From an uncultured Chloroflexia bacterium (GTDB taxonomy: Bacteria; Chloroflexota; Limnocylindria; Limnocylindrales; CSP1-4), in NCBI GenBank assembly GCA_963731635.1, contig CAVSWB010000004.1:240780-304779 (forward strand): a stretch of 64,000 nucleotides of DNA, read 5' to 3'. The notes under the pieces are model-generated. The model was not told where the DNA came from. It did no database searches and saw only the letters and a program-made list of their open reading frames with translations. The position numbers and the translations under genes are program-made. How positions within the stretch are numbered: position 1 is the stretch's first letter; every line of letters starts with the position of its first letter. Shown in pieces: positions 38,990 through 48,510 of the stretch.

Positions 38990-40405
38990 ATGCAGCTCTG
39001 GGGCGGTCAATTCAGCGGGACCACGGACGAGCGAGTGGCCGATTTCACGAGGTCGGTCGAACTCGATCGCGCCCTGGCGCTTGACGATATCGCGGGTTCG
39101 ATCGCCCATGTGCACGGCCTGGGTCGGGCCGGCCTGCTCGCCGATGAGGAAGTGGCGGCCCTCGTCGCGGGTCTCGACGCCCTCAGGGCCGAGGTCGTGA
39201 CCGGCGCCATCCGCTGGGATCCGGCGCTCGAAGACGTCCACATGAACCTGGAGTCGGCGCTGCAGGCCCGAATCGGGCCGCTCGCGGGGCGCCTCCACAC
39301 CGGCCGTTCGCGCAACGACCAGGTCGCCACAGATCTGCGGTTATGGCTGCGGCGCACGATCGACGAGCTGGACGCAGCTGTCCTGGAGATGGAACGGGCG
39401 CTGGTCCGGCTGGCCGACCGCGACGGGGAAGCGATCCTGCCGGGCACGACCCACATCCAGCCGGCGCAACCGGTGCTGCTTGCCCACCACCTGCTGGCCT
39501 ACGTCGAGATGCTCGAACGCGATCGAGGCCGCCTGGCGGACTGCCGGCGGCGGGCGAACGTCAGCCCGCTGGGCGCGGGGGCCCTGGCCGGAGCCGGTTA
39601 CCCGCTCGACCGTGAGGCGACCGCGGTCGAGCTCGGCTTCGACGGCGTCACCGCCAACTCGCTCGATGCCGTCAGCGACCGCGACTTCGTGGCCGAAGCC
39701 CTGTCCGCATTCGCCCTGTGCATGGTCCATCTCAGCCGGCTGGCCGAGGAGATTACCTGGTGGTCGAACCCGCGCTTCGGCTTCGTCCGCGCCGCCGACG
39801 CATTCTCGACCGGTTCCTCGATGATGCCGAACAAGAAGAACCCGGATCCCGCCGAGCTGGTGCGCGGCCGCGCGGCTCGGGTCATCGGTTCGCTGACCGG
39901 CTTCCTGGCGCTGATGAAGGGCCTGCCGCTGGCCTACCAGCGCGACCTCCAGGAGGACAAGCCGCCGCTCTTCGAGGCTGCCGCCACGCTCGAGGCATCG
40001 CTCGGCGTGATGGCGGGCATGGTGGCGACGCTGAGCGTCGATCGTGCCCGGATGCTGGCCGCGGCCAGCGAGGGTTACATAACCGCCACGGCCGTGGCCG
40101 ACGCGCTCGTCCGCCGGGGAGTGGCGTTCCGCGCCGCTCACCACATCGTCGGCGCGCTGGTCGCGGCGGCGGAGCGCGGCGGGGTCGGGCTGGACGTCGT
40201 CGACGACGCCGCGATATCCACCGCTCTGGCCGAATCCGAGGACGATGTCGCGCGTCGGCTGGGCGAAGATGCCTCGATCGGCGGCGAGCTGCGGGCCGCC
40301 GCGGCCCTGGACGGCGCACTGGCCAGCTGCGATGTGATCGGCGGGACGGCGCCACGCCGCGTCGCGGCGGCGCTCGCGGCAGCAAAGGCGCGCCTGGGAC
40401 TCTGA
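38990..40405 (+). CDS. argH: Argininosuccinate lyase
   Basis: LWGGQF, EDVH, HTGRSRNDQ, TGSSMMPNKKNPD, DLQEDK. Confidence 0.96.
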   Translation: MQLWGGQFSGTTDERVADFTRSVELDRALALDDIAGSIAHVHGLGRAGLLADEEVAALVAGLDALRAEVVTGAIRWDPALEDVHMNLESALQARIGPLAGRLHTGRSRNDQVATDLRLWLRRTIDELDAAVLEMERALVRLADRDGEAILPGTTHIQPAQPVLLAHHLLAYVEMLERDRGRLADCRRRANVSPLGAGALAGAGYPLDREATAVELGFDGVTANSLDAVSDRDFVAEALSAFALCMVHLSRLAEEITWWSNPRFGFVRAADAFSTGSSMMPNKKNPDPAELVRGRAARVIGSLTGFLALMKGLPLAYQRDLQEDKPPLFEAAATLEASLGVMAGMVATLSVDRARMLAAASEGYITATAVADALVRRGVAFRAAHHIVGALVAAAERGGVGLDVVDDAAISTALAESEDDVARRLGEDASIGGELRAAAALDGALASCDVIGGTAPRRVAAALAAAKARLGL

Positions 40406-40514
40406 GCCGCGAGGCCGTGCCCGGGCGAATGGCGCACGCGGAGGCCCGCGGGGCCTTGCTCCGAGCGAGTGGCGCGCGATGCATGAAGCCGCCTCCGCGC
40501 CCACTTTCTGAACC

Positions 40515-40591
40515 GCAACCAGCCCGGAACCAGAGCGCGACCCGAGGTCCACCCCGTCGCTACTGAACACCGCCTCACGCAACCCTACGCT
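40515..40591 (+). promoter_or_regulatory. amtB1 promoter: five 11-bp-periodic boxes plus -10 TACGCT
   Basis: GCAACC 40515, GGAACC 40526, GCGACC 40537, TCCACC 40548, GCTACT 40559; TACGCT 40586. Confidence 0.78.
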
Positions 40592-40652
40592 TTCGCGAGC
40601 CGGCGGAGAGCTTTCCGTTCGGTTGCGGCAATGGGACGAAGGAGAAACGCGC

Positions 40653-41876
40653 GTGATCAACTCCGGCGATACCGCCTGGGTACTTACCTCGACGGCGCTC
40701 GTCATGTTGATGACGCCCGGTCTGGCCCTCTTCTACGGCGGCCTCGTACGCCGCAAGAACGTGCTCAGCACGATCATGCACAGCGTCTTCATCCTGGCGC
40801 TCGTGAGCGTCACGTGGGTCCTGTTCGGGTTCACCCTGGCCTTCGGCAAGGACGTCAACGGCTGGGGGATCATCGGCGGAATCGATTACATCGGTCTGCA
40901 CGGCGTGGGCAAGGAGCCTTTGACCCAGTACGCACCGACGATCCCCGGGTCGGCCTTCATGGCCTTCCAGATGATGTTCGCCGTCATCACTCCGGCCCTG
41001 ATCACCGGTGCTTTCGCCGAACGCAAGCGCTTCAAGGCCTTCGTCCTGTTCTCGCTCCTGTGGACGCTGGTCGTCTACTCGCCGATCGCCCATTGGGTCT
41101 GGGGCGATGGCGGCTGGCTGCGCAATCTCGGCGTGCTGGACTTCGCGGGCGGCACGGTCGTCCACATCAGCTCCGGCGTTGCGGCGCTGGTCGCCGCCCT
41201 CGTCCTCGGCCCGCGTGTCAAGCGGGAGTCGGAGCGCTTCGAGCCGCACGACGTCCGACTGACCGTGATCGGAGCGGCGCTGTTGTGGTTTGGCTGGTTC
41301 GGCTTCAACGGCGGATCCGCTCTGGCGGCCAACGGCACGGCCGCGAACGCGTTCGTGGTCACGAACACGGCGGCGGGCATGGCGGCGCTGACCTGGGTCA
41401 CCGTCTCGTGGCTGCACAAGGGCACTCCCAGCGTGACCGGAGCCGTGGCGGGCGGTGTGGCCGGGCTGGTGGCCATCACGCCGGCCTCGGGTTTCGTGGA
41501 CGCCAGCTCGGCCATCATCATCGGCCTTGCCGCCGGCATCACCTGTTACGCCGCCATCCTCCTGCGTGAGCGGCTCAAGGTCGACGACGCGCTCGACGTC
41601 TGGGCCGTCCACGGCGTGGGCGGGACTCTCGGCGCGATCCTGACCGGCGTCTTTGCGGTGGCTGCCGTCGGTGGCGCATCGGGCCTCGTCGACGGCAATG
41701 CCGGCCAGGTCGGCAAGCAGCTGGTCGCGGTGGCGGCGACCTGGATCTACAGCGGTATCGCCACCTTTGCGATTCTCAAGATCGTCGACTTCTTCGTCGG
41801 GCTCCGAGTGGAGGAGGCCGAAGAAGAGGCGGGCCTGGACTCCTCCCAGCACGGCGAGGTTGCATGGCAGAGCTAG
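40653..41876 (+). CDS. amtB: Ammonium transporter (copy 1)
   Basis: GDTAW, TPGLALFYGG, FQMMFA, DFAGGTVVH, WFGWFGFNGGS, DDALDV, HGVGG, GLD..QHGE. Confidence 0.97.
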   Translation: MINSGDTAWVLTSTALVMLMTPGLALFYGGLVRRKNVLSTIMHSVFILALVSVTWVLFGFTLAFGKDVNGWGIIGGIDYIGLHGVGKEPLTQYAPTIPGSAFMAFQMMFAVITPALITGAFAERKRFKAFVLFSLLWTLVVYSPIAHWVWGDGGWLRNLGVLDFAGGTVVHISSGVAALVAALVLGPRVKRESERFEPHDVRLTVIGAALLWFGWFGFNGGSALAANGTAANAFVVTNTAAGMAALTWVTVSWLHKGTPSVTGAVAGGVAGLVAITPASGFVDASSAIIIGLAAGITCYAAILLRERLKVDDALDVWAVHGVGGTLGAILTGVFAVAAVGGASGLVDGNAGQVGKQLVAVAATWIYSGIATFAILKIVDFFVGLRVEEAEEEAGLDSSQHGEVAWQS

Positions 41877-41979
41877 GAGCTTCTCCGGCCGCCTGACGAG
41901 ACTCCGGCCCCCGGATCGCCCAACCGCCGGATTCCGAAACGGTTCGCCCGAACCGGTCGCTGAGACGTGTCCCCCAACG

Positions 41980-42056
41980 GCAACCGCCGCGCCACCAGAG
42001 CGCTACCCGAGGGTTACTCGGCCGCTACTGAAACGCGCTTCCGGCCTCCCTACGCT
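41980..42056 (+). promoter_or_regulatory. amtB2 promoter: five 11-bp-periodic boxes plus -10 TACGCT
   Basis: GCAACC 41980, GCCACC 41991, GCTACC 42002, GTTACT 42013, GCTACT 42024; TACGCT 42051. Confidence 0.8.
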
Positions 42057-42117
42057 TCCCAGGCCGAAACCTTTGCCTGCGTTTCGTTGCGAGTGGGGAA
42101 CCTGAGGAGTCTCGATT

Positions 42118-43338
<1,221 letters not shown>

Positions 43339-43399
43339 CGCAACCTCGGTTGCATTCGGCGAGCGGGCCGGGGATCGAAACAGGCGTTCGTACCGAACG

Positions 43400-43476
43400 G
43401 CAACCCCCGCGCCACCCCGGCGCTACCGACCGGCCACCGCCGCGCTACTGATATCGGCCGGCTCCCTCAATAGACT
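43400..43476 (+). promoter_or_regulatory. Third copy of the amt-type promoter, upstream of a microprotein ORF
   Basis: GCAACC 43400, GCCACC 43411, GCTACC 43422, GCCACC 43433, GCTACT 43444; TAGACT 43471. Confidence 0.78.
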
Positions 43477-43526
43477 TCAGGTCAGTGAAGGGACGGGGTC
43501 CCTGGTTCAGCCGAAGGAGCCGAGAC

Positions 43527-43610
43527 GTGATCGCAGCCGCTTTCATCAGCTTCGCAATCCTGGTCGTGGCCTGGTTCGTGGCCCCGTCTCGCGCCCACGA
43601 GGCCGAATAA
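43527..43610 (+). CDS. 27-aa single-TM microprotein MIAAAFISFAILVVAWFVAPSRAHEAE (not in the ORF track)
   Basis: AAGGAG RBS at 43514-43519, GTG start, TAA stop, its own conserved promoter, hydrophobic helix. Confidence 0.7.
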   Translation: MIAAAFISFAILVVAWFVAPSRAHEAE

Positions 43611-43727
43611 CCTCAAACGCTCCAAGCGCGGTCGTCCGGATCGCGCCGCTCAGTTCGAACACCGACCCGCGCACCTTTCGGCAGGCAGCGCGGGTTCGTT
43701 GTTTCTCGGCCTGGGCCTCGCCGTGGC

Positions 43728-44441
43728 CTAACCCGCGTCGCCCAGCCGGTAGCCCACGCCGCGCACCGAGGCCGGCACCGGAGCACCCGATTCCTCGAGC
43801 TTCGTTCGCAGGCGAGCCAGGTGTGGCTTGAGCCATTGCGGGTCCGGGTTCGGCTCGCCCGGCCAGCCGGCCGAGAGCAGGCTGCTGTGCGAGACCACGT
43901 GACCTCCCGCCGCGACCAGTGAGGCCAGCAGGCTGTATTCGGTGCGGGTCAGGACGAGCTCGTTGCCCGAGACCGCGGCGGTGTGGCGGCCGCGGTCGAG
44001 GACGATCGGTCCCCAGCGCAACTCGCCGACGCCACGCGGCTCGGCCTCGTTGCCGCGGCGGCGCATGACCGCGCGTATCCGCGCCAGCAGCTCTTGCTTG
44101 CCGAACGGCTTCACCACGTAGTCGTCCGCGCCGGTGTCGAGCGCCTCCACCTTGGCCCGCTCGTCGGCCTCGCCGGTCAGGACGATAATCGGCGTCTGGG
44201 ACATGCGGCGGATGGCCCGGCACACTTCCACGCCGTCCAGGCCCGGCATCGCCAGGTCGAGCAGCACCAGGTCCGGACGCTCCTCGGAGAATCGCCGCAG
44301 GGCCGTGTTGCCGTCGTACGCGGTCACGACACGGTGGCCTGCGCGACCGACGAGGGCCGAGACGGCTCCGACCATCGCGGGCTCGTCGTCCACGACGAGG
44401 ATGAGCAGGCCGGTATCTCCTGCGGAATCCATCTGGCTCAA
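43728..44441 (-). CDS. OmpR-family response regulator (KdpE-like)
   Basis: ILVVDDE, LVLLDLAMP, GADDYVVKPF, wHTH LTRTEY...VRGVGY. Confidence 0.92.
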   Translation of the reverse strand: MSQMDSAGDTGLLILVVDDEPAMVGAVSALVGRAGHRVVTAYDGNTALRRFSEERPDLVLLDLAMPGLDGVEVCRAIRRMSQTPIIVLTGEADERAKVEALDTGADDYVVKPFGKQELLARIRAVMRRRGNEAEPRGVGELRWGPIVLDRGRHTAAVSGNELVLTRTEYSLLASLVAAGGHVVSHSSLLSAGWPGEPNPDPQWLKPHLARLRTKLEESGAPVPASVRGVGYRLGDAG

Positions 44442-44469
44442 CTCGCCTCCTGTGGTCCAAGCCGGCGGC

Positions 44470-45864
44470 TCAGGCCCCGTCCTCCGACATCACCCCGGCC
44501 TCGGGAGCATTATCGCCGTCTGAAGTTTGGCGCATCTGGGGCACGGCCACCATGAACCGGCTGCCACCGTATCCGTTGGACTCCAACCAGACTCGCCCGC
44601 CCATGGCGGTCATGAGCTGGCGGGCCGCATACAGGCCGATCCCGGAGCCGCGGGGCCGGTTGGCCGTCCGGACATAGGCCTCGAAGACGGAAGCCCACTC
44701 CGGCTCCGGAATTCCGGAGCCGTCGTCGGTGACGTAGACCTGGACCTCGCCGTCGGCCGCCCAGGCTCCGATGCTCACCGCTCCGCCCTCCGGCGAATAC
44801 TTCACTTCGTTCTCGAGGAGATGTTCGAGAACCTGCCGGAAACGACCCTCGTCTCCGAGGCCGATCAGCGGCGCTTCGGTTCCGGAGCGTCGCAGGGGAT
44901 GGCTGCGCAGCAGCGGGATCATCTCGTCGACCGTGTCATTGATGGCGCGGGCGAGATCGAAGGGATCGCGCGACAGGCCCGCGGCCAGGCCTTCGCCCCG
45001 CACGGAGGCCAGGATCGAGTCGACGAGCCGGTCCAGCCGCGTGACCTGGGCTATCGCCTGGTCGCGCCAGTCGGCCACGACCGCCGGCTTGGGGAGAGGG
45101 CCCGCCGCCCTGGTCTTGCGGTTGTCGCTGGCGGCCCTGGCCGCGTCTACGGCCGCATCCGCGAGCAGATCGAGATAGGCCCGGACGATTGCGAGTGGCG
45201 TCCGCAGCTCATGGGTCACGACGGCAAGAAGCTCCGCGCGGGCGCCGTCCAGTGCGGTGAGGGTTTCGAGCTGCGCTTCGGCCTCCGCCTGTAACCGGCC
45301 CTTCTCGACGATGCCGCCGAGGAGCGCACTGATCGTGACCAGGAACTCGACTTCTTCGGGCGAGAACGTCCGGGCCTCGATCGTCTGGACGTTCAGAACG
45401 CCGATGATCAGATCGTTCCACGGCAGCGGAACCGAGAGCATCGAGGTGAACTGCGACTGGTCGAAGCCGGGCACCCACTTGAAGCGGGGGTCGACCCGCA
45501 CGTCCGGCGACGCCACCGGGAGACCGATCTCGGCGGCGCGACCGGTCAGGCCCTCGCCGAGAGCCATCGTTACGCGTCCGATCTGGTCGCGGTCGAGGCC
45601 GTTGGTCGCCACCAGCCGCAGCCGGGCCTCGTCACGCTCTCTGAGATACAAGGAGCAGACTTCCACGTCGAGGGCGCTGGTTGTGCGGTCCACGATGGTC
45701 CGCATCAGCTCATCCCAGTCGCGTGCCGTGGTCAGCAGCTTCGCGAACTCATGCAGGACGGACAGCTCGCGCAGCTTGCGCTCGGCGTCGACACGGCGCG
45801 GCCGCGCCGAAACGGCACCCGGCGTCGTCGGGCCTGGGGGGGCGTTCCGGTGCGGGGCGGTCAA
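44470..45864 (-). CDS. Cytoplasmic GAF-domain sensor histidine kinase
   Basis: GAF (VCSLYL...LVATNGL...GEGLTG...SMLSVPL...GVLNVQ), THELRTPL, DDGSGI, GSGIGL; no TM segment. Confidence 0.9.
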   Translation of the reverse strand: MTAPHRNAPPGPTTPGAVSARPRRVDAERKLRELSVLHEFAKLLTTARDWDELMRTIVDRTTSALDVEVCSLYLRERDEARLRLVATNGLDRDQIGRVTMALGEGLTGRAAEIGLPVASPDVRVDPRFKWVPGFDQSQFTSMLSVPLPWNDLIIGVLNVQTIEARTFSPEEVEFLVTISALLGGIVEKGRLQAEAEAQLETLTALDGARAELLAVVTHELRTPLAIVRAYLDLLADAAVDAARAASDNRKTRAAGPLPKPAVVADWRDQAIAQVTRLDRLVDSILASVRGEGLAAGLSRDPFDLARAINDTVDEMIPLLRSHPLRRSGTEAPLIGLGDEGRFRQVLEHLLENEVKYSPEGGAVSIGAWAADGEVQVYVTDDGSGIPEPEWASVFEAYVRTANRPRGSGIGLYAARQLMTAMGGRVWLESNGYGGSRFMVAVPQMRQTSDGDNAPEAGVMSEDGA

Positions 45865-45877
45865 GTGGTCGCTCGCT

Positions 45878-47164
45878 CTACTTCACGGCGCTGCCGGGCG
45901 CGTCGTAGACCTTCGTCGGCAGATCCTCGAGGAGCGGGTCCGTCCACGTCCAGGCCGCACCGTGGTGCCGCCCCACGGCGCCGTGGCGGGCCGCCTCGGT
46001 TCGGAGCGGCAGCCCGAAGATCTCGATGAACCCGACCGCGCTGGCGTGGTCGAAGGTATCGTCGGCTTCGTACGTGGCCAGCCCCTTGTCGTAGAGCGAT
46101 AGCGGGCTGCGCCGGCCAACCACAACGGCGTTGCCGTGGTCGAGTCGGACCCGGACGTCGCCGCTCACCACTCGCTGGCTGCTGGCGGCGTAGCCGCGAA
46201 GGTCGCGGTGCAGGGCGCTGAACCACAGACCGTCATAGGTGAGCTGGGCCAGCTCGTCGGCGACGACCCGATTGAACCGCAGAGTGTCCTTGGAGAGCGT
46301 CAGGCCCTCGAGCGCACGGTGGGCGCGGTGGATCACGACGGCCGCCGGCGCTTCGTAGATCTCGCGGCTCTTGATCCCGACCAGGCGGTCCTCGACGTGG
46401 TCGACGCGGCCGATGCCGTGCGCCGCCGCGAGGTCGTGCAGCCGCTCAACGAGCGTGACAGCCTCCAGGCGCTCACCATCGAGCGACACCGGGACACCGC
46501 CCTCGAAGCCGATCACGATCTCGACGGCCGCCGGGGCCTTGTCGGGATCGACGGTCCATTTGTAGACATCTTCGCGCGGCGCGGCCCACGGATCTTCGAG
46601 GATGCCCGCTTCGATGGAGCGGCCCCAGAGGTTCACGTCGGTCGAGTAGATCGATTCCTTGGTGATCGTGATCTCGATGTTGCGGGCCTTCGCGTATTCG
46701 ATCTCCTGCTCGCGCGACAGCCCCATGCCGACGCGCATCGGGGCGATGACGGCCAGAGATGGATCGAGGGCGTGAGTCGCGACGTCGAACCGCACCTGGT
46801 CGTTGCCCTTGCCGGTGCAGCCGTGGGCGACCGCGTCGGCGCCTTCCTTGTGCGCAACCTCGACGAGCAGCTGGGCGATGAGAGGGCGCGCCATCGCCGT
46901 CGCCAGCGGGTAGACGCCCTGGTAGAGCGCACCGGCCTGGACATGGGGCCAGCAGAAGTCGCGCACGAAGCGATCCCGGCCGTCGACGACGTAGGCTCGC
47001 GCCGCACCCGCGCTGATCGCTCGACGATCCACGTCTTCCTTGAGCACGCCGCCGCCGAGATCGACCGTCAAAGTCACGACCTCGACGTCGTACTGCTCGC
47101 GCAGCCAGGCCACTGCCACCGACGTGTCGAGCCCACCGGAGTAGGCGAGGACCACCTTCTTCAT
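45878..47164 (-). CDS. argG: Argininosuccinate synthase
   Basis: VVLAYSGGLDTS, HGCTGKGNDQVRF, NLWGRSIE, GIKSREIYE. Confidence 0.97.
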   Translation of the reverse strand: MKKVVLAYSGGLDTSVAVAWLREQYDVEVVTLTVDLGGGVLKEDVDRRAISAGAARAYVVDGRDRFVRDFCWPHVQAGALYQGVYPLATAMARPLIAQLLVEVAHKEGADAVAHGCTGKGNDQVRFDVATHALDPSLAVIAPMRVGMGLSREQEIEYAKARNIEITITKESIYSTDVNLWGRSIEAGILEDPWAAPREDVYKWTVDPDKAPAAVEIVIGFEGGVPVSLDGERLEAVTLVERLHDLAAAHGIGRVDHVEDRLVGIKSREIYEAPAAVVIHRAHRALEGLTLSKDTLRFNRVVADELAQLTYDGLWFSALHRDLRGYAASSQRVVSGDVRVRLDHGNAVVVGRRSPLSLYDKGLATYEADDTFDHASAVGFIEIFGLPLRTEAARHGAVGRHHGAAWTWTDPLLEDLPTKVYDAPGSAVK

Positions 47165-47704
47165 CTGGGAGCCTCCGAATGCGCGAATGATCGGCCGGTC
47201 GGCAAGCCTGTCGGACCGGCCGGCTGGTATGACTGGAAGCGGACGAGCCACCGTTCGAGGGCGGCTTCGCTTTCGAAAAGTACGAGCAGCGTGTTGTCGC
47301 CGGCCAGCGTGCCGATCTGTTCGGTGAGGCTCGACTGGTCGATGGCCTGGGCGATCGCTCCCGCCGAACCCGGCGTGGCGAGGAGAACGATGCTGAGCCC
47401 GCTGCGGCCGAACCTGCACCGGGATGTCCTCGAGCAGCCGGGCCAGCCTGGCGTCGTAGGCGTCACCCGTGGCGGCGCTCTCGGGCGTGGCGTAGACGTG
47501 GCGGTCGCCGCGCGGTGCTTTCACAAGCCCGAGCTCGGCGGCGTCGCGGCTGACGGTCGCCTGAGTCACCTCGAAGCCTCGCTCACGGAGCAGCTCGACG
47601 AGCTCCTCCTGGCTGCCCACCGGCAGCAGCGAGATCAGCTCGAGCAGCGTCCTCTGGCGGCGTTGCTTGGAGCTCGGGAGATTGCCGTTGACGGCCATGG
47701 TCAT
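47161..47704 (-). CDS. argR: Arginine repressor, frameshift about 47415
   Basis: SQEELV..L, VTQATVSRD, LGLVK; C-terminal TPGSA, GTLAGDNT in a second frame. Confidence 0.9.
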
Positions 47705-47711
47705 TTCGATC

Positions 47712-48510
47712 TCAGCTTCTGCCGGCGGAGACTTCGCCGGCCTCGCGGGCGGCGGTGATACGCGTACCGAATTTCGGGTCTCCCAGCGCGCGCGACAGGG
47801 CGTGCGCGTCCGCCGGAATCGCAGATGACCGCCTGGGCGCCCGCCCAATTCAGAGCCTGCAGAGCGGCCCTGATCTTGGGCACCATCCCGCCTTTGATGA
47901 CCCCGCCGTCGATCAGTTGCTCAGCCTCGCCGGCGGTCATGGTGTCGAGCTTCTCGCCGGCCGCGTTACGGACGCCGTCGACGTCGGTCATCAGGACGAG
48001 CTGGCGGGCGCCCAGCCCGGCGGCGATGCCGGCCGCAGCGTCGTCGGCGTTGACGTTGCAGACGATGCCGTGCTCGTCCCTGGCGAGCGGCGCGACGACG
48101 GCCACCTGGCCGGCCACGAGGAGCTGATCGAGGAAGTTGCGGCGCACCCCAACCACGTGAGCCACGAGACCCAGATCGGGCACGCGCTCCGCGATCATGA
48201 AGCCGCCGTCGACGCCGGAGAGGCCGACGGCATCCACGCCGCGGTCCCGCAGGTCGGAGACGAGCTCGGAGTTGACCACTCCCCGCAGGACGGCCGCGGC
48301 CACGTCCAGGGCGGCCTGGTCGGTCACCCGGAGTCCGCCCTCGAAGCGGCTCTGCACGCCGAGGCGCTCCAGCCACTCGGTGATCCGCTTGCCGCCGCCG
48401 TGGACCAGCACCACCGGACGCTCGCGCGCCACGCCGGCGACCTCGTCGAGCACATGGGCCTGGTCGGCGAGTGTTGTCCCGCCGAGCTTGAGGACGAGAA
48501 CTTCGCTCAC
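47712..48510 (-). CDS. argB: Acetylglutamate kinase (C-terminal frameshift about 47810 likely)
   Basis: VLKLGG, LVHGGG, GLRVTD, NVNAD, TDVDGV, GGMVPK. Confidence 0.93.

Follow-up and report, generated by a model that had tools for sequence, protein, structure and literature searches.

A candidate PII-independent two-component module at the ammonium channel genes of a Limnocylindria lineage, with an Amt-linked membrane microprotein

PII is regarded as the near-universal partner and gatekeeper of Amt ammonium channels. In the NtrB/NtrC two-component system, which reads cytoplasmic nitrogen status and turns amtB on under limitation, NtrB is under the control of PII and NtrC belongs to the sigma-54 enhancer-binding proteins. 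A head-to-tail arrangement with an 11-bp period overlapping the -35 position is the mode of OmpR/PhoB-type activators; in PhoR-PhoB, the dimers bind head-to-tail on 11-bp direct repeats that replace the -35 element, with several boxes per promoter, and PhoR is a membrane-anchored PAS kinase. Here we describe a locus that combines parts of these systems in a different way. It lies at positions 40515-45864 of a 64,000-nucleotide stretch ("the window") of contig CAVSWB010000004.1 from an uncultured member of the Limnocylindria (Chloroflexota), and it consists of 2 Amt channel genes (amt1 and amt2), a gene for a 27-aa membrane microprotein, and a soluble GAF-domain histidine kinase with an adjacent OmpR/PhoB-type response regulator. 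The 3 promoters of amt1, amt2, and the microprotein gene carry the same array of six 11-bp repeats. We propose that the locus is a lineage-specific, local, PII-independent two-component switch for ammonium uptake together with an Amt-bound microprotein, a reading to which we give about even credence.

Other described systems approach this locus from different sides. GlnR is reported to bind GTnAC-n6 sites, four to six of which stand in tandem at amtB, head-to-tail around -35, with six sites at the Streptomyces coelicolor amtB promoter (PMC3087709, PMC10235972). The GAF domain of PtsP (EI-Ntr) is described as binding glutamine, which inhibits EI-Ntr autophosphorylation, in three species (PMC4848567). 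In Methanosarcina mazei, the 61-aa soluble protein sP36 is reported to move to the membrane on ammonium upshift and to bridge GlnK1 to AmtB1 (PMC10714827). The microprotein here resembles sP36 as a small protein predicted to target Amt in nitrogen-dependent control, but as sP36 is described there the two are set apart, since the peptides here are 26-46 aa long, have a membrane helix, and occur in PII-less genomes. Ks-Amt5 and Sd-Amt1 are described as PII-independent fusions of Amt to a histidine kinase or other transducer (PMC5764959, PMC11152129), that is, one polypeptide with Amt as the receptor, whereas the kinase here is a separate soluble protein with a GAF sensor. SAR11 is reported to lack GlnB, GlnK, GlnD, and NtrBC and still to respond to nitrogen limitation (PMC3870248). 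Nitrogen control without PII is the point of likeness; SAR11 belongs to another phylum, and its abstract contains no kinase/regulator pair or Amt-linked peptide. Our searches of the literature, supplementary files aside, met with no account of a membrane peptide gene following amt, of a Limnocylindria lineage losing PII, or of a GAF kinase and an OmpR regulator encoded beside amt genes; a Geobacter paper was unrelated.

The closest promoter parallel is GlnR. Both regulators are of the OmpR/PhoB type, GlnR being an activator of amtB and the regulator here a proposed activator of amt, and the boxes here (G-Y-n-A-C-C/T, six per promoter, with binding predicted) resemble the GTnAC-n6 pentamers that GlnR uses around -35, with an 11-bp period in each case. 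However, GlnR is an orphan with an atypical receiver, while the regulator here has a canonical receiver and an adjacent kinase, and the GlnR receiver model PF21695 scores only 18.2 bits on it, below the cut-off of 27. GlnR also governs glnA and dozens of genes in contrast to the three boxed promoters here, its amtB operon holds PII and GlnD, neither of which was found in the genus genomes searched, and the recognition helix differs. With NtrB/NtrC the locus would share two-component control of amt by cytoplasmic nitrogen status, but its regulator has no AAA+ domain and no PII was found in the genus. A search for Sigma54_activat in five genus genomes gave a best score of 33.6 bits, with all matches weak and partial; since all 14 of 14 control genomes also matched and the scores here reached only about 33 bits, this search does not discriminate. 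The likeness to PhoR-PhoB lies in the 11-bp direct repeats at -35 and in the nearest solved relative of the regulator, the mycobacterial phosphate regulator RegX3. Here, in contrast, the kinase is soluble and has a GAF domain, and the targets are ammonium channels, with no boxed phosphate genes. PtsP provides the closest characterized relative of the sensor domain, although its output is a phosphoenolpyruvate-dependent phosphotransferase cascade and not a histidine kinase with a DNA-binding regulator; the ligand of the GAF domain here is a presumed one. The module would thus resemble GlnR or PhoB at the promoter and PtsP at the sensor, and it belongs to neither the GlnR nor the NtrBC type. Two-component control of transporters and small membrane partners of transporters are known; the combination of sensor and output, the PII-free setting, and the peptide family are new.

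The promoter arrays are the most distinctive element of the locus. The anchor GCTACTGA occurs at 40559, 42024, and 43444, once each before amt1, amt2, and the 27-aa open reading frame (ORF), and the three upstream regions have a mean column identity of 70% when aligned. Upstream of each anchor are direct repeats (..CGyNACC) with an exact 11-bp period, all ending in AC[CT]. The last box overlaps the -35 position, with a TAnnnT -10 downstream: CTGAxx follows the last box, and after 17 bases comes a -10-like hexamer, TACGCT, TACGCT, or TAGACT. The sequence-only reading had assigned these three genes one copy each of a five-box promoter. The shared design was borne out, with scores far above the null and conservation across the genus, while the number of boxes had to be revised, as relatives reveal a sixth box, CGTcCy, farther upstream. 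The genus consensus for the six boxes reads CGTcCy, GAACgGCAACC, ...CGyCACC,.gaGCGy.ACC, ....g..yACy, and cG..cGCTACT, followed by GATT.

These arrays are unique in the genome. With a matrix built from the window's 15 boxes, the three arrays scored 43.9-51.8 bits against a maximum of 10.9 in a null consisting of 1 Mb of Markov sequence scanned on both strands. A second matrix of 70 columns, derived from 54 sites in genus members other than the window genome, gave the three scores listed in Table 1, while the next best position in the genome scored -13.1 bits and the null maximum was -9.0. Arrays were present in 14/20 genus loci and in 30/40 of a larger set, the ten array-less loci of which also contain no amt. 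The 57 distinct array sites from these 40 loci are conserved position by position and, one spurious GC-repeat site apart, stand before amt or the peptide gene. A mobile repeat was ruled out as the source of the boxes, because the arrays occur at these three promoters only.

We looked for further members of this regulon across the genome. Matches at glnA and at urea and amino acid transport genes had been predicted from the sequence alone, and none were found: the genome matrix scan finds no fourth array, no boxes stand upstream of either of the two full-length glutamine synthetase genes, and there is no array at arg genes or at phosphate genes. Shorter arrays gave 28 (2 boxes), 11 (3 boxes), and 24 (4 boxes) matches genome-wide above the 20th-best null score, compared with 20 expected from the null, and are thus not enriched. 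The absence of boxes at glnA or elsewhere indicates that the predicted regulon is local, comprising amt1, amt2, and the peptide gene, and is not a global nitrogen regulon. Both channels are full-length members of the Amt/Mep/Rh family, far above the cut-offs of 23.2 bits for PF00909 and 343.3 bits for TIGR00836, and the genome (3.25 Mb on four contigs) holds no other amt gene.

It had been noted that no glnK/PII gene adjoins these channels, and a PF00543 search agrees, finding none at the locus or in the whole genome; the identical search detected PII in 13/14 well-known genomes. PII was likewise absent from a set of 61 genomes made up of the window genome, 36 others of the genus, and 24 from a sister family (0/61). 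Among class genomes at least 85% complete, PII occurs in 1/151, compared with 67/201 for the phylum genomes, and GlnD was found in 0/5 genus genomes. The window genome is 68.8% complete, yet the outcome is unchanged in genus members with 93-95% completeness. The lineage as a whole, and not merely the locus, lacks PII. The close relatives in question are Candidatus Limnocylindria/Limnocylindrales (Chloroflexota) from fen, peat, and soil metagenomes.

The sole PII gene found in the 151 class genomes (G150:C2:153102-154638, locus L131) lies immediately downstream of amt on the same strand as a canonical amtB-glnK pair, which was possibly acquired by transfer. It sits in the position held elsewhere by the peptide gene, and genome G150 has no microprotein match. 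The sister family of 1.0-1.4-Mb freshwater-type genomes (G037-G060) has amt in 0/7 and PII in 0/24, and 7/24 contain only a 246-aa match to the kinase core that lacks the GAF domain; these genomes seem to have lost the whole module.

The description of the kinase as a cytoplasmic GAF histidine kinase proved sound. No hydrophobic stretch is present, the highest 19-aa Kyte-Doolittle mean being 1.28 compared with 2.72 for the peptide, and HisKA-type membership is clear from PF00512 (40.5 bits), PF02518 (76.1 bits), and the H-box THELRTPL. The GAF domain spans about residues 36-199 and aligns with positions 4-167 of NF008283, the model for PtsP (EI-Ntr), with an E value of 8.2e-28. Its best match among solved structures is 3e0y (5e-23), itself an uncharacterized domain, followed by the PtsP GAF domains 3trc (8.6e-19) and 3ci6 (4.5e-18); weaker matches are to the cGMP phosphodiesterase GAF domains (E 5.7e-8), Nlh, and the haem GAF of DevS (about 2e-4). 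The PtsP-type GAF is thus the closest characterized relative of the sensor domain by ten or more orders of magnitude, and by analogy its ligand would most likely be glutamine and/or 2-oxoglutarate. A homologue search with the kinase returned 120 best matches that are all close relatives with generic names, so this search is uninformative on function. KdpD was considered and rejected as an identity: the score was 79.1 bits against a cut-off of 1123, only the kinase core was matched, and no kdp genes are in the neighbourhood.

The regulator gene follows the kinase gene on the same strand after a gap of 28 bp, and both proteins contain canonical phosphotransfer residues. OmpR/PhoB membership rests on a receiver and a C-terminal Trans_reg_C domain, both above cut-off, and the receiver is canonical: DD makes up the acidic pocket, LVLLDL holds the phospho-acceptor Asp, and the conserved Thr and Lys are present. 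The nearest solved structures to the full regulator are RegX3, MtrA, and PrrA. For the DNA-binding domain alone they are RegX3 (6.3e-11) and then M. tuberculosis GlnR (8HIH, 2.1e-8), with S. erythraea GlnR (8HML, 3.1e-7) fifth, where both GlnR entries are identified through their description in PMC10235972. The recognition helix QWLKPHLARLRTKL is atypical and unlike those of RegX3 and GlnR. A PhoRB identity was ruled out by scores and by context, there being no phosphate genes with boxes.

If this pair does drive the three promoters, its signal need not be nitrogen. GAF domains are versatile, the best solved match is uncharacterized, and the weaker matches include the cGMP phosphodiesterase and DevS haem domains, so the kinase might instead sense a cyclic nucleotide, redox state or oxygen through a cofactor, or another metabolite, tying ammonium uptake to the energy or growth state of the cell. 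Respiratory cyd genes adjoin the pair in relatives and boxes occur at no other nitrogen gene, both of which would fit such a signal. We nevertheless judge this improbable, as the PtsP-type domain, the closest characterized relative by at least ten orders of magnitude, is a glutamine sensor in PtsP, and no targets are predicted beyond the ammonium channels and the peptide that partners them.

The third predicted target, the microprotein gene, is a genuine coding sequence. Its ORF begins 7 nt behind the ribosome site GAAGGAG, and pairwise comparison of 23 same-register orthologues gave divergences of 0.108, 0.099, and 0.375 at codon positions 1, 2, and 3, with 1583 synonymous versus 1040 non-synonymous codon differences. 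Residues A5, F6, F9, L12, V13, W16, A19, P20, and S21 are invariant in 30 sequences. This codon-position signature and the conservation across the class rule out a non-coding or leader element. Taken alone, the fold of the whole leader is weak (-18.8 kcal/mol, z -1.25). The peptide profile matches 61/151 class genomes, made up of the window genome, all 9 other genus genomes, and 30/38 and 21/55 genomes of two other families; the remaining genera of the family to which the window belongs gave no matches (0/40).

The distribution of the peptide follows amt closely. The microprotein was proposed to occupy the glnK position, and in other families it does lie directly 3' of amt on the same strand. 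Across the class, 62/64 matches share the strand of an amt gene and begin 24-349 bp past it (median 34.5), one is at 591 bp, and one is without a listed amt nearby. In all 20 of 20 loci fetched from two other families, the amt stop is followed after 10-40 nt by an ORF of 36-46 aa that has a ribosome site of its own and bears the motif AFxSFAxLVVAW[LFI][VI]AP[ST]. The ancestral arrangement is accordingly an amt-peptide operon, and in the present genus the peptide gene gained a separate promoter copy. Outside the class there are 9 weaker matches; 5 of the 8 fetched directly follow amt, and all 5 of these genomes are PII-negative. PII and a peptide-profile match were found together in a single genome, G361, whose peptide match is weak and not beside amt. 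The family has 757 database relatives of 26-46 aa at E <= 0.001; all names among the 120 matches listed read "hypothetical protein", and Pfam domains are lacking throughout. The window peptide matched neither Pfam nor NCBIfam, 24 family members searched against Pfam reached only chance level (best E 0.011), and a protein atlas returned only "hypothetical protein" clusters.

Structural modelling predicts that the microprotein binds Amt. For an Amt monomer (408 aa) and its own 38-aa peptide, with alignments supplied for both partners, the complex score was 0.67 (runs 0.58-0.75) compared with 0.00 for the best of three controls, and a mark of 0.67 is reached by 58/80 solved complexes but only 2/110 mismatched pairs. 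The partner pLDDT (predicted local distance difference test) was at least 63 and the contact agreement between runs at least 0%. In the best run, peptide residues 1-20 lie against Amt residues 242-258, 282-291, and 347.

Partnership with Amt is not the only role that might be considered for the peptide. MgrB acts as a feedback peptide on PhoQ, and the microprotein could similarly be a feedback element on the signalling pair, or an unrelated membrane peptide that shares an operon. The peptide gene of this genus comes with a regulated promoter and a terminator of its own, which implies induction together with amt as for a feedback peptide, and the three complex runs have no guaranteed contacts in common. 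The kinase, however, is soluble, and the complex model favours binding to Amt over the controls. Since the peptide follows amt even in kinase-less families with a different operator, its partnership appears to be with amt and not with the kinase, and we consider either alternative role very unlikely.

Several side observations concern the peptide and its channel. Genome G023 (locus L048, position 4572, + strand) has a second, divergent microprotein copy of 32 aa directly after amt1, between amt1 and amt2, which fits an ancestral amt-peptide operon duplicated together with amt. Outside the class, locus L217 (1465-1720, genome G278) has two tandem small hydrophobic ORFs after amt that may be a duplicated microprotein. 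In other genera of the window's family that have no microprotein match (L175, L177, L180), Amt carries an N-terminal extension of ~30 aa before GDTAW that resembles a signal peptide.

Taken as a switch, the locus would work as follows. The soluble kinase would read a cytoplasmic metabolite through its PtsP-type GAF domain, with low glutamine and/or high 2-oxoglutarate releasing kinase activity, so that under nitrogen scarcity it would phosphorylate the adjacent OmpR-type regulator. The phosphorylated regulator would bind the six 11-bp repeats head-to-tail, probably as three dimers, with the promoter-proximal dimer touching sigma region 4, and would recruit RNA polymerase at the three promoters, switching on amt1, amt2, and the 27-aa peptide. 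The peptide, an old partner of Amt encoded where others have the GlnK gene, would insert beside the channel helices and modulate or stabilize Amt. In this scheme, regulator binding, the ligand, the direction of the response, and the role of the peptide are inferences, whereas the gene content, the unique and conserved arrays, the synteny, the lack of PII, and the coding status and amt linkage of the peptide are observed. A bolder version is possible and, in our view, rather doubtful. In it the microprotein would be a functional replacement for GlnK in PII-less Chloroflexota that sits on Amt within the membrane and gates ammonium flux, or would report Amt occupancy to the GAF kinase so that Amt, peptide, and kinase form a joint ammonium sensor, and the pair would be a GlnR-like activator that retains its kinase, as GlnR did before becoming an orphan.

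The association of this pair with amt was followed through the genus and the class. Within the genus the kinase is found in 36/36 genomes, and kinase and regulator are adjacent in 20/20 fetched loci; amt lies within the fetched 8 kb in 12/20 of these, and 8 and 22 kb away in two others that were checked. In the class, the kinase family (E <= 1e-40) occurs in 95/151 genomes (by family 46/49, 2/7, 36/38, 9/55, and 1/1) and amt in 113/151. Synteny of kinase and amt was expected in related genomes and was recovered: the two lie within 20 kb of each other in 53/86 class genomes having both (52/83 when three unpublished genomes are omitted), with amt always on the downstream side of the kinase. In the remaining genomes with both, 2 have them farther apart on one contig and 31 on different contigs. 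The linkage spans three families at about 50% identity and persists despite rearrangements. Outside the class, only 4 weak partial matches to the kinase family were found among the phylum genomes sampled there.

The operator upstream of amt also varies with this linkage. Where no kinase match exists, the palindrome TGTGCA-N3-TGCACA is present upstream of 16/19 amt genes and a direct-repeat array, defined as a score above the 99th percentile of shuffles, upstream of 1/19. Where the kinase is linked to amt, the palindrome is present in 0/17 and the array in 7/17, and in a genus with an unlinked kinase the counts are 3/3 and 1/3. Because relatives are not independent samples, this relation between operator type and kinase linkage is a correlation and not a test. 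The window genome has no exact match to the palindrome and one match with one mismatch.

In another Limnocylindria family (L144-L158, L160, L161, L181-L183), the palindrome is seen as a 15-bp element, TTGTGCA-N3-TGCACAA, about 100 nt upstream of amt, and these promoters also carry a TGCACAA half-site just after the -10. It looks like the operator of another, dimeric regulator that replaces the direct-repeat system. Loci L151 and L183 have the palindrome plus two to four CGCAACC-type repeats.

A neighbourhood of this kind could also be inherited synteny and nothing else, with another OmpR-family regulator or other factor binding the arrays and the pair controlling, for example, arginine or cytochrome bd genes. 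Several of our observations lean that way and weigh against the proposed ammonium switch. A gap of 14 bp separates argG from the start of the kinase gene, argG and argH flank the block as a whole, and in many relatives cydABDC stands on the same strand after the regulator, between it and the peptide gene, so the neighbourhood could simply have been inherited. Genus genome G024, which is 93% complete, keeps the kinase and regulator with no detectable amt. In one genus of another family the kinase is unlinked to amt, and all 3/3 amt promoters have the palindrome, one of them with both elements. The genome contains 18 other OmpR-type winged-helix proteins (19 Trans_reg_C matches in total), any of which could bind direct repeats, and the atypical recognition helix means that homology does not predict the DNA target of the regulator. 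In 40 loci from other genera with kinases about 60% identical, the regulator (E <= 1e-25) adjoins in only 19, from which it follows that the kinase family includes paralogues with other arrangements, and only 7/17 kinase-linked amt promoters outside the genus passed the array test.

Further points on the same side concern the scope and the parts of the switch. With no boxes at glnA or elsewhere, the three promoters do not amount to a general nitrogen regulon. The ligands of GAF domains are diverse. An Amt monomer was used in modelling the complex, so the predicted peptide site may be the Amt trimer interface, and the three runs have no guaranteed contacts in common. The lineage is known from metagenome-assembled genomes only. 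Even so, inherited synteny by itself seems unlikely to us, given that the kinase-amt linkage has lasted through rearrangements in 53/86 genomes of three families at ~50% identity, that operator type tracks linkage (palindrome in 0/17 linked promoters versus 16/19 without a kinase match), and that no array occurs elsewhere in the genome, the arg upstream regions included. The local two-component switch for ammonium uptake remains the reading that we put forward.

The coordinates of all features are collected in Table 1.

Table 1. Features of the amt locus, in window coordinates.
Feature	Position	Strand	Evidence
Six-box array, amt1 promoter (last box ends GCTACT)	40499-40564	+	43.9 bits own matrix; 54.5 bits other-genome matrix
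Putative amt1 core promoter: -35-like CTGAAC 40563-40568, 17-bp spacer, -10-like TACGCT 40586-40591	40563-40591	+	conserved in genus sites
amt1, Amt-family ammonium channel	40653-41876	+	PF00909 E 5.8e-130, 434 bits; TIGR00836 476.8 bits
Six-box array, amt2 promoter	41964-42029	+	51.8 bits own matrix; 61.5 bits other-genome matrix
-10-like TACGCT, amt2 promoter	42051-42056	+	conserved as ATACGCT in genus
amt2, second Amt-family ammonium channel	42118-43338	+	PF00909 E 1.5e-131, 439.3 bits; TIGR00836 475.2 bits
Six-box array, microprotein promoter	43384-43449	+	49.3 bits own matrix; 70.4 bits other-genome matrix
-10-like TAGACT, microprotein promoter	43471-43476	+	conserved as ATAGACT in genus
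5' leader with conserved short hairpin GGGAC-N3-GTCCC and ribosome site GAAGGAG 43513-43519	43490-43519	+	sequence, folding
27-aa single-pass membrane microprotein MIAAAFISFAILVVAWFVAPSRAHEAE	43527-43610	+	codon-position divergence, class-wide conservation
Terminator-like hairpin with U-rich tail, between the convergent microprotein and regulator genes	43657-43712	+	-24.6 kcal/mol, z -2.47
OmpR/PhoB-family response regulator	43728-44441	-	PF00072 E 2.9e-32, 111.6 bits; PF00486 E 6.3e-14, 52.3 bits
Soluble GAF-HisKA-HATPase histidine kinase	44470-45864	-	GAF, PF00512, PF02518 matches

The amt1, amt2, and microprotein genes on the + strand converge with the kinase/regulator pair on the - strand, and the block as a whole lies within an arginine gene cluster, with argH upstream and argG, argB, argJ, and argC beyond. 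The start of amt1 is a GTG 8 nt after a GAAGGAG ribosome site (an alternative in the ORF list is a TTG at 40623), and that of amt2 is a TTG 8 nt after GAGGAG. The start codon of the kinase is uncertain, as relatives align from about residues 7-27. A simple consensus scan reported no promoters and no terminators at the locus: the promoters were missed because they are non-consensus, and the hairpin between the convergent genes, whose sequence is conserved in the genus, was missed because its tail fails the T rule of the scan. Rfam gave no match at E <= 1 in 40300-44000.

Many genus genomes have, after the regulator gene and in its orientation, a block of about 6.5 kb with cydA, cydB, and a cydDC-like ABC transporter (for example, L044 954-7068, - strand). 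This block, which the window lacks, stands between the regulator gene and those for the peptide and Amt. Farther along the window, argR is apparently split by a frameshift (47161-47848, - strand): its N-terminal winged-helix part runs in frame into argG, giving a fused ORF of 656 aa (45878-47848), while the ArgR C-terminal domain is in another frame (ORF 47161-47466). This split is probably an indel error of a long-read assembly, and such errors would also account for the low marker completeness of this four-contig genome.

The class is abundant in peat, soil, and lakes and has Amt, yet PII occurs in only 1/151 of its sampled genomes, and no more than a third of the sampled Chloroflexota have PII. 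The locus offers two candidate replacements for PII: a GAF kinase and OmpR-type regulator with a six-repeat operator, and an unannotated peptide family tied to amt. If the proposed reading is true, the peptide family would be a new type of transporter-bound microprotein, the pair with its operator would provide a compact, orthogonal nitrogen-responsive promoter and regulator set, and the lineage would show how ammonium uptake can be controlled without PII.

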